Source: a virus (Duplodnaviria; Heunggongvirae; Uroviricota; Caudoviricetes). From it: a DNA stretch of 51,013 nucleotides. The stretch is from IMG/VR virus record IMGVR_UViG_2548876959_000011; one strand, written 5' to 3'. Of this stretch, positions 40,765 to 47,131 are shown piece by piece. A model generated the notes under the pieces. That model did no database searches, had not been told where the DNA came from, and saw nothing but the letters and a program-made list of their open reading frames with translations. Each line of letters begins with the position of its first letter. Position 1 is the first letter of the stretch. Both the position numbers and the translations under genes were made by a program.

Positions 40765-41343
40765 ATGTTGCGCTTTACTGAGGAAGAGTTTCAGGCTTTT
40801 AGTGAGCGTCGAAATAAGGGGCGGTCCAGGCCAAAAACCAAAAAGGATCCATTCTTATCGCTTGCGCCGGTAAAAGAAGTTTCTCCACATGCGAAGGCAC
40901 TTGCAGCACTGGCAAAGAACCCAGACCTGCGCGACGGAAATTGCGAGCACTTCGAGCAGGTTTTCATTTTTGATTACTTCGAACGCAAGCACCCTGACAT
41001 CTATGATCTGTTGCATGCAACGCCTAACGGAGGGAAGCGTTCAAAAGCAACCGCTGGGAAAATGAAGGCTGAAGGGCAGAAAAAAGGTTATCCGGACATG
41101 AGTCTCGATAAAGCATGCGGTATTTATCACGGCATGCGAATTGAGCTTAAAGAACCAAATGGTAAAGCCCCGACGAAAGAGCAGATCGCCTGGATGCGCA
41201 GGCTTAGAGAGGAAGGCTACTACGTTGTTCTTGCGTATGGTGCAGAACAAGCGATTACCGCCATCCTGGAATACATAAGCCTTAAAAAGGGTGAGGCTAT
41301 TGAGCATGTATTGAACGGCGATAAGTGGTTGTCTGTCGCTTAA
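40765..41343 (+). CDS. VRR-NUC domain nuclease-like protein
   Basis: 192-aa ORF; GYPDMSL...MRIELKEPNGKAPTKEQIAWMRRLREEGYYVVLAYG matches VRR-NUC pattern. Confidence 0.6.
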   Translation: MLRFTEEEFQAFSERRNKGRSRPKTKKDPFLSLAPVKEVSPHAKALAALAKNPDLRDGNCEHFEQVFIFDYFERKHPDIYDLLHATPNGGKRSKATAGKMKAEGQKKGYPDMSLDKACGIYHGMRIELKEPNGKAPTKEQIAWMRRLREEGYYVVLAYGAEQAITAILEYISLKKGEAIEHVLNGDKWLSVA

Positions 41344-41410
41344 AATAATAAATTAATTAGTGCATGTGCACTCTTTGTGGTAGTGCACTTTAACATCGGG
41401 AGAATAATCG

Positions 41411-41565
41411 TGTCATCCAAGGTTAATTATGAGTCGCTGGCATCGGTCATGCCGCGTAATGAACAGGAAACAGATGCTGTAGTGGACCCTGTAATCGCTG
41501 AAATGAATGCTCGCCTGGAGGCTGAATTTGCAGCTGAGAATGAACATACCACCCAGGGCGACTAG
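41411..41565 (+). CDS. small hypothetical protein
   Basis: GTG at 41411 after GGGAG RBS, inside ORF 41377..41565. Confidence 0.3.
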
Positions 41566-42169
41566 GACTGTTTTTTGTGTCGGTAGCGGTCCGTCACTCA
41601 CTCGTGAGGACTGTGCTGCTATAGAAAAAACTGGCTGTTCAATCATCGCGGTTAACAATTCCTGGCAGATGTTCGATGACATTTATGCCTTATACGCCGG
41701 TGATTTGTCATGGTGGAAGCAATACGGATCCACCATACCGGGAGGGAGATTCCGCAAAGTGACAGCCAACCTGGCGGCGGCGAAATCATTTTCGTTGGAG
41801 TACAGGCGATATTGTGGACCGGCGGAAGGGGTAAATAGCGGCGCGCAGGCTATCAGTCTGGCTGCTGAATCAGGGGCTGAAGTAGTGGTATTAGTCGGCT
41901 ATGACTGTTCTCTGCAAAACGGCCTTCATTGGCATGGCGCGCACCCTCAAGCCCTACGGAATCCAACGCAGGTGTCTATTTCAAAATGGCAACAGCAGTT
42001 CCTGGATACCCGCAAAAAACACGCAGATTTACATATTTTGAATGCAAGTAGGAGCAGTGCAATTCAATGTTTCCCAAGAATAAATTTAGAGGCAGTGATC
42101 GCGTTATTATCGTCGGCAGTGGCCCAAGCGCCGCAAACTTTGTTGCGCCGCGCGGAGTGCCGATTATAG
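41507..42169 (+). CDS. DUF115 (MptE/Cst-II-like) family protein, paralog 1
   Basis: N-terminal VFCVGSGPSL...IIAVNN and VVLVGYDCS motifs; start may be at 41540. Confidence 0.45.
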   Translation: MLAWRLNLQLRMNIPPRATRTVFCVGSGPSLTREDCAAIEKTGCSIIAVNNSWQMFDDIYALYAGDLSWWKQYGSTIPGGRFRKVTANLAAAKSFSLEYRRYCGPAEGVNSGAQAISLAAESGAEVVVLVGYDCSLQNGLHWHGAHPQALRNPTQVSISKWQQQFLDTRKKHADLHILNASRSSAIQCFPRINLEAVIALLSSAVAQAPQTLLRRAECRL

Positions 42170-42693
42170 CGGTCAATGGGGCCATCGACTGGCTGAACCG
42201 CGCTTCTTATTTTTTCACACTTGATCCATCGCCAGACAATATGCGGCGCGTTGGTCGTGGCCGCCGTCGCCGTGGTGTTTGTTATTGCATGGCACTACCC
42301 GATGTTAAAGAACGTGAAGTCAGAGATGGCGTTCTGTGCTTCCGTCGTGTGGCTGAACGCGGCATGGAGCCAAACAATACGAATTCTCCCGAGTGGTGGG
42401 CGTGGCGCTGGTCCGCACATTTCGGACTTTGCGAAGATGAGAATGAAATTGCCAGCGGCAATAGTGCATATGGTGCTCTGAACCTGGCTTTCCATATCGG
42501 ATTCAAACATGTCGCCCTGGTGGGCGTTGACGCTACACAAGAACCACGCGTTCACTCCGGCGGCACGCCAAAAAATCTAAGTCACCTGCCTTTGTTATTC
42601 CAGTCTGCGCGTGAACGGATTGACGTTGTTTCATGCGGGAAAATGGGAGGTATTCCGCAGATGACTCTTAAAGAATGGCTGAAGAATACATGA
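42067..42693 (+). CDS. DUF115 (MptE/Cst-II-like) family protein, paralog 2
   Basis: N-terminal [10 protein letters not shown]...IIAVNG and VALVGVDAT motifs paralleling the upstream ORF. Confidence 0.45.
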
Positions 42694-43367
42694 TGGCACC
42701 CACAATTTATCACCGTATCGACGGTACCAAATACAGGAATGTCTGGGTTGTTGGTGATCTGCATGGTTGCTACACCAGACTGATGTCCGAACTCCATCGT
42801 GTGGATTTTGACCCGGCGCAGGATTTACTGATATCGGTCGGCGACCTTATCGATCGCGGTACTGAAAATGTCGAATGTCTGGAACTATTGCAGATGCCCT
42901 GGTTCAGGGCAGTGATGGGGAACCATGAGCGGCTGATGATTGATGCGTTAAGTCCAGATGGCAACGTGAATAACTGGCTAATGAATGGCGGACAATGGTT
43001 CTTCATGCTGGACACTGATCAGGAAATATTAGCTTGGGCGCTGGTGGAGCTGGTAAAGCGTCTGCCCTATATCATTGAGTTGAACACCGGGCAAGAAACT
43101 ATCGTTATAGCCCATGCCGACTATCCGGATAATGAATACCAATTCGGTAAGGAGGTGCCGCTTTTCAACGTTGTCTGGGCGCGCGAGCGTATCAGTGATT
43201 CGATGGATGATATTGGTGGCGAAATTTCGGGCGCAGATCGTTTTATCTTTGGTCACACTCCGGTGAAAAGCCCGAAGACATTCTGGAATCAGCAGTATAT
43301 CGACACTGGTGCCGTATTTTGCGGAAACCTGACATTGATGAAAGTGAAAGGTGATGGTGCAGCATGA
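42675..43367 (+). CDS. ppp: Ser/Thr protein phosphatase (lambda-PPase / calcineurin-like)
   Basis: Motifs GDLHG, GDLIDRG, GNHE. Confidence 0.85.
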
Positions 43368-44065
43368 AGATTGCTTTAGTTTTTCGCTCTGGTGGTGACT
43401 ATAACGCTTCCGATGTGCAGTGGCTGGTTAATCAACTGCCAAAAGGCTATGAAATTATTTGCCTGACAGACCTGAAGCGTTTACATGTACCTGGCGTCAA
43501 AGTTGTCCCATTGATCAACCAGTGGCAAAAGTGCCGTGGCTGGTGGGCGAAAATCGAGTTGTTCCGACCGGATATAACCGATGATCTGTTCTATCTGGAT
43601 TTGGACACGGTTATTGCCGGTGATATACGCCCAATCCTAGAGCATCCACCAACCAGCTTCACCATGCTTAGGGATTTTTACCATCCACAATATCGTGGCA
43701 GCGGTGCCCTGTGGATACCAAATAGTGTTAAAGCGCATATCTGGAGTTCATTCTGGCAAGATCCGGAAGGTTGGATTTCTCGTTGTGTCACTACTGAGTG
43801 CTGGGGTGACCAGGGGTTCTTACGAAAGGTTATGGGCGATGATACACCAGCATTTCAGGATCTGTATCCAGGATGGTTTGTAAGTTACAAGGCCGATGTT
43901 GTGGAACCTGGTTCAAAATATGCGAGCGCGCGTTACTCCAGGGGGAATGGGGCATTACCAAAAGACTGCCGAATAATCTTTTTCCACGGCAAACCGCGAC
44001 CTCGCGAAGTGTCAGAGGATTGGCTTCCCCTTATCAGCTCGTTTTTTGAGCGAGAATCAGAATAA
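43364..44065 (+). CDS. GT-A-like glycosyltransferase candidate (DXD motif)
   Basis: 233-aa ORF; [13 protein letters not shown] resembles GT-A DXD region. Confidence 0.4.
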
Positions 44066-44066
44066 T

Positions 44067-44083
44067 ATTGCTCTAATAATTCC
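44067..44083 (+). promoter_or_regulatory. C1 operator-like half of a palindromic operator pair
   Basis: ATTGCTCTAATAATTCC, 14/17 match. Confidence 0.5.
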
Positions 44084-44115: not shown

Positions 44116-44132
44116 TTTTTTATTAGAGCAAT
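44116..44132 (-). promoter_or_regulatory. C1 operator-like half of a palindromic operator pair (inverted)
   Basis: TTTTTTATTAGAGCAAT; reverse complement 14/17 match. Confidence 0.5.
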
Positions 44133-45701: not shown

Positions 45702-46208
45702 TTGAGTATTTTCAATAAACACGCACACCAGGAACGTCCGTATATCGTCATAGTCGATATTGATGGAACAATATCAGAGGCAACTGAAGACAGACTGCAT
45801 TTGCTTCCGCCACCAGGTAAAGGTGCATTAACAAAGGACTGGAACGAGTTTAATCTCGCCTGTGACACCGATACACCCATCACTCCAGTTATTGATATGG
45901 TGCGCCAGTTATTTAACGTTTACACGGTCTGGTTTGTAACTGGGCGCTGTGAGATCGCAAGGGATAAAACACGAGCCTGGCTGCGGAAGTACGTAACAAA
46001 CGGGGCTGAGCCTTTGCTATCTATGCGTCCTGCCACCGATGACAGAAATGACGGCCCAGCAAAGATTGATCTCCTTAAGAAAATTGGTCTAAGTAAAATC
46101 GCGTTCGCGCTGGAAGATAAGATTGAAGTGGCGCGTATTTTCAGGAGTCACGGCGTACTTACATTCATGGTCAGGGAGTATGAAAATGCGCTTCTTCATC
46201 AACAATAA
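45702..46208 (+). CDS. pap: HAD-superfamily phosphatase (P1 Pap-like)
   Basis: 168-aa ORF; DxDGT motif VIVDIDGTIS. Confidence 0.7.
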   Translation: MSIFNKHAHQERPYIVIVDIDGTISEATEDRLHLLPPPGKGALTKDWNEFNLACDTDTPITPVIDMVRQLFNVYTVWFVTGRCEIARDKTRAWLRKYVTNGAEPLLSMRPATDDRNDGPAKIDLLKKIGLSKIAFALEDKIEVARIFRSHGVLTFMVREYENALLHQQ

Positions 46209-46402: not shown

Positions 46403-47131
46403 ATGAAAGGCGAAGTGAAAGAGCGCGGCATGATTTTCAACGATGAGATGGTCCGGGCCATCCTCGAAGGAAGGAAAACGCAGACGCGGCGGATAATGAA
46501 AAATCAGCCTGCGGAAGTTGGTCCAGAAGCACCAGTGATGGTTAGAAAAATTGGTGCAGGTTTTCAGTGGTACGGGGCTGATGGTGTAAGCAGTGTTTTC
46601 AATTGCCCATTTGGTATCGTCGGCGATCGAATTTGGGTTCGTGAAACATGGGCGATATTAGGCAATGAGGATGGTTGCAGTGTGGACTGGAACGACAACC
46701 TTTGTCGTGGCGATGAGAAGAACGCAGCAAGGATTTATCGGGCCAGTTGCGAGCAAAAACCTGGTGATTACGGCTTATGGTCGATACCCGATGATGCCGA
46801 CTGGAAACCTCACACTGTGAATGAAAAGTTTGATGGTGGGTGGCGTCCATCAATTCACATGCCGCGATGGGCATCACGCATTCTGTTGGAAATTACCAAC
46901 GTGCGCGTTGAACGGTTGAACGATATCAGCGAATGCGATGCAAGGGCTGAGGGCGTTCCGCCTGCTGGAAGTTTGCTTCCTGATCACCCGGGAACATTCC
47001 TTACTCCCAAGGGGGATTTCGCAATGGCCAAGGTTGCGTTCCAGCGCCTATGGGAATCCATCTATGGTGAAGAAAGCTGGAACGCTAATCCCTGGGTGTG
47101 GGTAATCGAGTTTAAGCGCATTCAGGAATAA
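46403..47131 (+). CDS. hypothetical protein, possibly ASCH-like
   Basis: 242-aa ORF; N-terminal MIFNDEMVRAILEGRKTQTRR. Confidence 0.45.
   Translation: MKGEVKERGMIFNDEMVRAILEGRKTQTRRIMKNQPAEVGPEAPVMVRKIGAGFQWYGADGVSSVFNCPFGIVGDRIWVRETWAILGNEDGCSVDWNDNLCRGDEKNAARIYRASCEQKPGDYGLWSIPDDADWKPHTVNEKFDGGWRPSIHMPRWASRILLEITNVRVERLNDISECDARAEGVPPAGSLLPDHPGTFLTPKGDFAMAKVAFQRLWESIYGEESWNANPWVWVIEFKRIQE

Follow-up and report, generated by a model that had tools for sequence, protein, structure and literature searches.

Organization and Control of the Locus

The stretch of viral DNA analyzed here, hereafter the window (51,013 nucleotides (nt); IMG/VR record IMGVR_UViG_2548876959_000011), carries between positions 41507 and 44065 four plus-strand open reading frames that correspond to pmgO, pmgP, ppp and pmgQ of phage P1, known in phage P7 as hdmB, hdmC, ppp and hdmD. 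The cluster had been delimited at exactly these coordinates by an initial annotation, made from the sequence, which read it as two DUF115-like paralogs, a Ser/Thr phosphatase and a glycosyltransferase-like gene acting together in a small-molecule or glycan modification pathway. The present analysis indicates that pmgO, pmgP and pmgQ form a cassette recurring in unrelated phages, that ppp is separable from it, and that the cassette may serve to glycosylate the phage particle. The 2.9-kb stretch around the locus shares 99.9% identity with Salmonella phage SJ46 and 99.0% with P1, and at least 80% of it is present in 19 of the 21 matching phage records, identifying the window as a P1-like phage.

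The control elements were transferred from the RefSeq annotation of P1 (L001; window position = L001 + 37299, at 99.0% identity). A predicted sigma-70 promoter, PpmgN (41311-41337, plus strand; L001 4012-4038), precedes the first gene of the transcription unit and is followed by Oppp, also called Op83, an operator of the C1 repressor (41350-41366, minus strand; L001 4051-4067). Compared with the C1 consensus, Oppp has by our own count 4 mismatches in its 17 positions, and hence falls outside a scan that allowed up to 3; the site, which lies upstream of pmgN, may therefore be weak. That scan, made with the 17-nt operator consensus, returned nine matches in the window (10990, 12660, 26862, 30384/30395, 40443, 44067/44116 and 46208) against 0.19 expected by chance. 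Two of them are the operator pair OpmgRa/OpmgRb (44067-44083, minus strand, and 44116-44132, plus strand), also annotated in P1, which together with the promoter PpmgR mark the 3' end of the unit, and a late promoter, LPpmgL, is annotated further upstream in P1. From these operators and the late promoter the unit is predicted to be repressed by C1 in the lysogen and transcribed in lytic growth.

The unit opens with pmgN (41410-41565, plus strand; 51 residues), whose GTG start at 41410 is preceded by GGGAGA and whose end overlaps the start of pmgO; no family match was obtained for pmgN, and the gene was not found with the cassette outside P1-like elements. Downstream, ppp is coupled into the operon by a 19-nt overlap with pmgP and an ATGA overlap with pmgQ. 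In none of the four proteins encoded from pmgO to pmgQ does any 19-residue hydropathy window exceed 1.6, and all four appear soluble.

According to published work, neither plaque formation nor antirestriction is affected when pmgO, pmgP, ppp or pmgQ is deleted or knocked down (PMC9024508; PMC10695390), and none of the four is named in the main text of the paper on the P1 virion proteome (PMC9024508). Reports on pmgN conflict: its knockdown by CRISPR interference cut plating about 70-fold and the gene was scored essential, whereas its deletion was reported harmless (PMC10695390). Simple polarity fails to explain this conflict, because knockdowns of the downstream pmgO, pmgP, ppp and pmgQ were neutral (PMC10695390).

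PmgO and PmgP, a Diverged Pair of the DUF115/MptE-like Fold

The gene pmgO (41507-42169, plus strand; 220 residues) encodes a divergent DUF115/MptE-like protein of the Cst/Maf type, and pmgP (42067-42693, plus strand; 208 residues) encodes a remote paralog of the same fold; they are proposed to be subunits 1 and 2 of a nucleotide-sugar transferase. The motifs on which the DUF115 assignment had been based are present in both, as CVGSGPS, IIAVN and LVGYD in PmgO and IVGSGPS, IIAVN and LVGVD in PmgP. Matches to the Pfam MptE-like family (PF01973) are partial and do not reach its gathering cut-off of 34.6 bits, at 23.4 bits (E=5.7e-5) for PmgO and 20.9 bits (E=3.4e-4) for PmgP; the assignment is right at the level of the fold, for two divergent proteins that lie under Pfam's own threshold. 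Over the two families, 55 of 61 members match MptE-like and no other Pfam family (best E=5e-8), and the PmgO family itself is large, with 7,524 representatives at E<=1e-3.

Paralogy of the tandem pair, also claimed in the initial annotation, is barely visible in a single-sequence BLASTP comparison, which aligns 36 N-terminal residues only (E=0.003). When family alignments of 33 PmgO and 36 PmgP homologues were compared profile to profile, with the natural fusion described below kept out, the resemblance proved to be beyond chance (98% probability, E=1.6e-13, 160 columns spanning both proteins). Residues invariant in the 33 PmgO homologues are G28-P29-S30, N50, D66, S111-G112, G131-Y-D133-C-S, H141, H143 and R182; in both families the G-x-G-P-S nucleotide loop, (T/N)-S-G and G-x-D are invariant or nearly so. 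Conservation in PmgO begins near residue 19 in the homologues, for which reason its start codon is uncertain, at either 41507 or 41540.

For this pair structure prediction was made for PmgP alone, and comparison from that model gives the three-dimensional fold common to MptE, Maf and Cst. In sequence comparison the combined PmgO/PmgP profile comes closest, among solved structures, to the Cst-II sialyltransferases (E=0.014; 0.2 with the PmgO profile alone), whose KKVIIAGNGPSL (GNGPSL) and QRITSG...LSGIDFY segments align in register with the motifs of the combined profile. PmgO also belongs to phrog_4603 (4e-74), labeled 'alpha-2,3-sialyltransferase'. The label is probably too specific, since the cassette carries no genes for synthesis of sialic acid activated with cytidine monophosphate (CMP) and since, to our knowledge, E. 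coli K-12 makes no CMP-sialic acid.

The fold alone cannot tell a glycosyltransferase from a pyrophosphokinase. The initial annotation had left both a small-molecule (MptE-type) and a glycan role open, and were PmgO and PmgP pterin- or thiamin-type pyrophosphokinases, the locus would make or modify a metabolite. That the closest solved relatives by sequence are Cst-II enzymes speaks against such a role, as do the neighbors and fusion partners of the family, which are glycosyltransferases, a TylF-like sugar O-methyltransferase, sulfotransferases and immunoglobulin (Ig)-like domains rather than cofactor-biosynthesis genes; these neighborhoods favor the glycan part of the earlier proposal and make the small-molecule part very unlikely.

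The two genes share a dual-coding overlap of 103 nt (42067-42169, plus strand), in which the C-terminal 34 codons of pmgO and the N-terminal 34 codons of pmgP are read together, pmgP lying in the -1 frame. The pmgP ATG sits within conserved Cys-Phe codons of PmgO, and does so also in a P1-like element of Pantoea (L007) and in a Citrobacter rodentium prophage (L003). A programmed -1 frameshift fusing the two proteins was considered, given an A_AAT_TTA heptamer at 42082 within the overlap, and was rejected, the heptamer being conserved neither in L007 nor in L003; by our own estimate about 0.13 slippery-type heptamers are expected by chance in 34 codons.

Fusion of the two proteins does occur in nature. 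A metagenomic phage (L002) encodes a PmgO::PmgP protein of 376 residues (P0051), and four further proteins (P0223, P0244, P0303 and P0269) carry tandem double DUF115-like domains; these natural fusions argue that PmgO and PmgP act together. Other fusions join PmgO-like domains to Ig-like domains or to a TylF-type sugar O-methyltransferase. Two other proteins, P0217 and P0320, join a PmgO-like domain to a conserved C-terminal domain of ~290 residues; a guess that the latter might be a GT9 heptosyltransferase was dropped, no Pfam or PDB match having been found for it.

PmgQ, a GT8-like Glycosyltransferase, and Ppp, a Lambda-type Phosphatase

The last gene, pmgQ (43364-44065, plus strand; 233 residues), is assigned from its profile and model to the GT8-like retaining glycosyltransferases of the GT-A fold (glycogenin/LgtC/Gat1-type). 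A DXD glycosyltransferase-like gene had been recognized here before, and PmgQ indeed has the motif YLDLDTV together with a GT8-like retaining glycosyltransferase fold. Pfam Glyco_transf_8 (PF01501) returns no match for PmgQ itself and weak ones for 4 of its 27 homologues (best E=0.026). Searched against PDB sequences, the family profile finds Gat1 (6mw5) at E=1.6e-6, GlyE at 0.004 and glycogenin at 0.02. The model (predicted local distance difference test score 94.3) has its best Foldseek match at 5e-9, with a template-modeling (TM) score of about 0.57, and the first 50 matches comprise glycogenin, Gat1, GlyE, LgtC, a deposited GT8 protein, WbbM, LARGE1 and XXYLT1, so that the predicted GT-A fold is closest to solved GT8 enzymes.

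Across the 27 homologues the invariant positions are W60-W61-x-K63, D79-L-D81-T, G148-D149, S174-x-K176 and H208-G-x-P211-x-P213; Q150 is nearly invariant, and the H208-G-x-P-R-P motif is C-terminal. In alignments with Gat1, glycogenin and WaaJ, D79-L-D81, G148-D149(-Q150) and H208-G-x-P-R-P fall on the equivalent motifs, and the DxD, DQ and H-G-x-P-R-P elements of PmgQ are predicted to correspond to the metal-binding and catalytic motifs of the GT8 family.

The identity of Ppp (42675-43367, plus strand; 230 residues) is unambiguous from sequence comparison: it is assigned as a lambda-type Ser/Thr protein phosphatase of the calcineurin-like metallophosphoesterases, and the earlier call of a lambda phosphatase-like enzyme is borne out by both Pfam (Metallophos, 59.3 bits, cut-off 21.5) and PDB (1g5b, E=1.5e-94 over residues 11-229, essentially full length). 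It is annotated in P1 as 64% identical to the lambda phosphatase, and it scores under the NCBIfam equivalog cut-offs for the host proteins PrpA/PrpB (272 vs 326 bits). All four family assignments of the initial annotation thus survived profile and structure tests; since labels for PmgO, Ppp and PmgQ already stand in PHROGs and RefSeq, they are confirmations. PHROGs leave PmgP without a function.

A Mobile Cassette From Which ppp Is Separable

When 185,579 species genomes were scanned with the PmgQ profile, 56 loci from many phyla emerged, or 58 with L002 and L003 added. Of the 58, 24 also carry a DUF115-like gene, which in each case shares the strand of the PmgQ-like gene and lies a median of 1.1 kb upstream of it. 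The trio pmgO-pmgP-pmgQ occurs without ppp in the lambdoid prophage L003 of C. rodentium, in a related lambdoid contig of E. coli type in which pmgQ is truncated (L144), and in a Pseudomonas prophage (L141); the unrelated metagenomic phage L002, again without ppp, has its PmgO::PmgP fusion followed by PmgQ and then by another glycosyltransferase-like protein. By these occurrences pmgO-pmgP-pmgQ is a mobile cassette recurring in unrelated phages. Scanned against viral sequences, the PmgP profile matched no contigs other than near-identical P1-like ones.

The phosphatase behaves otherwise. Among the 56 loci a Ppp relative stands with PmgQ in just 3, all P1-like; a further, unrelated copy lies at a distance of 2.5 kb in the opposite orientation. 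None of 80 viral PmgO loci has one, nor has any of the 6 additional prophage or phage contexts that were examined, and in phage D6 ppp is found among nin-like genes, without pmgO, pmgP or pmgQ. It is only in P1-like elements that Ppp goes with the cassette, and it is not part of what is conserved. Co-conservation, which the initial annotation had proposed as a check, therefore divides the cluster: pmgO, pmgP and pmgQ travel together, and ppp does not travel with them outside P1-like elements.

The earlier proposal had placed all four proteins in one pathway; on that view Ppp would act on a phosphorylated intermediate or on a product of PmgO and PmgP. The view can draw on the translational coupling of the genes in P1-like elements, on a DUF115 fold that includes pyrophosphokinases, and on the order pmgO-pmgP-ppp-pmgQ, which is kept in the P1-like relative from Pantoea at 58-74% amino-acid identity; as synonymous sites are saturated at that distance, all four genes are under purifying selection in P1-like elements. 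Set against this, ppp is missing from every cassette found outside P1-like elements and stands alone in D6 and, as ninI, in lambda, and Ppp, which resembles the lambda enzyme over essentially its whole length, shows no sign of new specificity. A single four-gene pathway is accordingly improbable, and what stands of the proposal is the glycan role of PmgO, PmgP and PmgQ, well supported by their co-conservation, their fusions and their sugar-tailoring neighbors. Rather than performing a step of the pathway, Ppp would most likely be a passenger or accessory that is co-transcribed with the cassette, its gene having entered between pmgP and pmgQ in the P1 lineage alone.

Residence of the Cassette Families in Head-gene Modules

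Every position found for the cassette or its families lies in a region of lysis or virion-structural genes. Genes of the cassette families directly follow a capsid or connector gene in six loci (L039, L014, L141, L142, L037 and L055), and the carriers in which such genes stand between the major capsid or connector gene and the head-completion gene are Nitratireductor, Pseudomaricurvus, Pseudomonas, Ochrobactrum and Zixibacteria prophages and a contig binned to Woesearchaeota. In lambdoid prophages of enterobacteria it is instead the lysis genes that the cassette follows. Partner genes encode GT77-like Nucleotid_trans proteins (sub-threshold in Pfam), Methyltransf_24 methyltransferases, adenylylsulfate (APS) kinase and sulfotransferases. 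Two capsid-adjacent islands (L055:3460-7668 and L037:5294-8233) combine a PmgO-like gene with one or two PmgQ-like genes and methyltransferases; the former, which is binned to a Woesearchaeota metagenome-assembled genome, possibly in error, has in addition two genes for sulfotransferase-like proteins and one for APS kinase, a combination that suggests glycans carrying sulfate and methyl groups.

The wider distribution was examined in 80 diverse IMG/VR contigs with a PmgO-like gene (L146-L225), chosen from at least 585 matches. In all of them the PmgO-like gene is co-oriented with whatever head genes were detected. By seed searches, 44 loci have a portal gene, 42 one for head completion and 37 one for the capsid; by clustering, the gene directly upstream is of the head-completion type in 62, and a collagen-repeat protein is encoded about 1.8 kb upstream in 51. 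Of the same 80 loci, 52 include a methyltransferase-like gene and 32 a second DUF115 paralog whose sequence motifs mark it as more Cst-like; PmgQ is present in just 4. In a large group of HK97-like phages among these the recurring gene order runs from terminase, capsid, portal, a collagen-triple-helix-repeat protein and the head-completion protein to the PmgO-like gene, the second DUF115 paralog (GSGPG / RVNN / TGFDFF), a methyltransferase and the tail genes, as exemplified by L154:2144-3112, L154:3742-4092 and L155:2577-3260. The collagen-repeat protein (Pfam Collagen, E=5.5e-19) is an obvious candidate for the glycosylation acceptor in these phages; no collagen-like repeats were found in the window.

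These loci also bear on the possibility that phage DNA is the substrate of the enzymes, as it is for the glucosyltransferases of the T-even phages. Phage glycosyltransferases acting on DNA are a known category; however, no locus examined has hydroxymethyl-base synthesis genes with the cassette, the T4 enzymes have the different GT-B fold, and P1 DNA is cut by ordinary restriction enzymes, so that DNA is hardly to be expected as the acceptor.

A Proposed Role in Virion Glycosylation

With about middling confidence, we propose that pmgO-pmgP-pmgQ is a glycosylation cassette of the lytic phase, whose soluble, cytoplasmic products most likely act on a phage-made protein of the virion. PmgO and PmgP would most likely form a heteromer, each transferring a nucleotide-activated sugar, and PmgQ, as a GT8-like, metal-dependent retaining hexosyltransferase, would add to or extend the glycan with a sugar activated by uridine diphosphate (UDP). 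The donor for PmgO and PmgP in enterobacteria may be host CMP-3-deoxy-D-manno-octulosonic acid (CMP-Kdo), a reasoned guess made because genes for CMP-sugar synthesis do not accompany the cassette and because the characterized transferases of the fold use CMP-activated ulosonic acids; its sole support is a faint, recurrent similarity to WaaZ, detailed below. A phage-made acceptor is suggested by the lytic expression in P1 and by the presence of the same families inside the head-gene module of many phages; that this acceptor belongs to the virion is suggested by the head-module association and the collagen-repeat neighbors, by analogy with Maf acting on flagellin and with the glycosylated capsids of mycobacteriophages.

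In another reading, the target of the cassette in lytic growth is a glycan of the host envelope, such as the lipopolysaccharide (LPS) core, the receptor of P1, which it would remodel with PmgO/PmgP acting as WaaZ-like and PmgQ as WaaO/WaaJ-like (GT8 core glucosyltransferase) enzymes; superinfection would thereby be stopped, or progeny would not be lost on cell debris. WaaZ_KDO_III, the model of the Kdo-III transferase WaaZ (GT73, TIGR04437), is the only NCBIfam model matched repeatedly by the PmgO/PmgP families (10 of 61 members, best E=0.006), and the PmgO::PmgP fusion protein has a faint precomputed Pfam match to it. PmgQ aligns with WaaJ through its DxD and H-x-x-G-x-x-KPW motifs, CMP-Kdo is general in Gram-negative hosts, P1 adsorbs to the LPS core, and the cassette lies at or beside lysis genes in several enterobacterial prophages. 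The WaaZ similarity is nevertheless very weak: PmgP scores 11.8 bits (E=0.11) against a cut-off of 200 and is outside the family, and alignment to E. coli WaaZ with hhalign gives a probability of 12-14%, so that kinship with WaaZ was set aside as a weak, if recurrent, signal. Moreover, these families reside within head modules in many lineages, in association with collagen-repeat proteins, the operon is C1-repressed and hence not one of lysogenic conversion, and some carriers are binned to lineages thought to be without LPS (Saccharibacteria, Woesearchaeota), though the binning of short contigs is unreliable. Envelope remodeling is judged rather unlikely, if less so for P1, whose receptor is the LPS core.

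Returning to virion glycosylation, a more general form of the proposal can be advanced only tentatively: that P1 and hundreds of tailed phages, mostly of Gram-negative hosts, glycosylate a virion protein by means of a Maf/Cst-like pair together with GT8-like and other tailoring enzymes, the acceptor being a capsid, decoration or collagen-like head-fiber protein and the donor probably host CMP-Kdo or another ulosonic acid. The mobile cassette, its residence in head modules and its collagen-repeat and sugar-tailoring neighbors turn this into a testable claim on the glycosylation of Gram-negative phage particles. If it is true, virion glycosylation would be widespread and overlooked outside mycobacteriophages, with a bearing on phage immunogenicity, stability and adsorption, and pmgO, pmgP and pmgQ, which in a reference phage have been only 'putative morphogenetic' genes since the genome was annotated, would gain a function. 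A literature search returned no functional study of pmgO/pmgP/pmgQ, of hdmA-D, of phage DUF115 proteins or of P1-like glycosyltransferases, and the paralogy of PmgP, the natural fusions, the mobile cassette, the exclusion of Ppp and the systematic head-module residence were not found in it. Two corrections of current annotation follow for PmgO and PmgP, the sialyltransferase label being probably too specific for the former and the latter being its paralog.

Other Genes Near the Locus

Directly 5' of the unit, pmgM (40765-41343) encodes a VRR-NUC nuclease-domain protein, with a Pfam match just under the cut-off (E=3e-4) and an agreeing RefSeq label. Farther downstream, pap (45702-46208), the 'acid phosphatase' of P1, matches Pfam HAD_PNKP (6e-12) and phrog_415 'polynucleotide kinase' (8e-57); as its match is to the HAD-type phosphatase domain of polynucleotide kinase-phosphatase, a role in nucleic-acid end repair rather than that of a generic acid phosphatase is suggested. 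The product of pmgT (46403-47131) has 242 residues in the window vs 309 annotated in P1, where the gene overlaps pmgU; the shorter form matches PHROG 874 over its entire length, and therefore either the P1 annotation is extended or the lineage of the window has an earlier stop. The PADLOC models of anti-phage defense gave no significant match (best E only 0.02-0.03).

Relation to Known Systems

The enzymes of the cassette resemble several characterized systems and differ from each. PmgO and PmgP belong to the DUF115/MptE-like fold (PF01973) of the Maf (motility-associated factor) flagellin glycosyltransferases and of Campylobacter Cst-I/Cst-II (GT42); they differ in being minimal domains of ~200 residues under the Pfam gathering cut-off, which form a diverged and sometimes fused pair, in the invariant H-W-H-G-x-H motif that is PmgO's own, and in that no genes for CMP-nonulosonic acid synthesis accompany them, their transferase activity being predicted from sequence. 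MptE, the archaeal 6-hydroxymethyl-7,8-dihydropterin pyrophosphokinase (PDB 8sd5), acts in folate/methanopterin biosynthesis, whereas the neighborhoods of PmgO and PmgP give no hint of cofactor metabolism. With the GT8 enzymes (glycogenin; Gat1, the Skp1 alpha-galactosyltransferase; GlyE; LgtC; WaaJ/WaaO) PmgQ shares the GT-A fold, the DxD and DQ motifs and an H-G-x-P-R-P element comparable to H-x-x-G-x-x-KPW; it is only 11-17% identical to them, with TM scores of about 0.5-0.6, and is shorter, has no Glyco_transf_8 match and carries a family-specific W-W-x-K. Its top three matches, Gat1, glycogenin and GlyE, act on proteins or protein-linked glycans. Ppp has the metal-binding motifs GDxHG, GDxxDRG and GNHE of the lambda phosphatase (NinI, 1g5b) and differs in its setting, the lambda and D6 genes lying among nin-region genes and that of P1-like phages being wedged inside a glycosyltransferase cassette.

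At the level of the whole system, the gtrABC-type modules, which modify LPS upon lysogenic conversion, are expressed in the lysogen and include integral-membrane flippase or transferase components; they are a poor counterpart, since the operon lies behind C1 operators and no 19-residue window of its four proteins reaches a hydropathy of 1.6. The closer comparison is with virion glycosylation in mycobacteriophages, for which Freeman et al. (2023) reportedly found methyltransferases alongside the glycosyltransferases. The system proposed here differs in its Gram-negative hosts and in its predicted enzyme families, a DUF115 pair and a GT8-like protein. In mycobacteriophages, phage-encoded glycosyltransferases are reported to decorate capsid and tail-tube proteins (Freeman et al. 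2023, cited in PMC12691614). One feature expected of a virion glycosylation system, namely phage-encoded glycosyltransferases expressed with the structural genes, is also seen here, in the C1-controlled and late promoters of the P1 unit and in the head-module residence of its relatives elsewhere.

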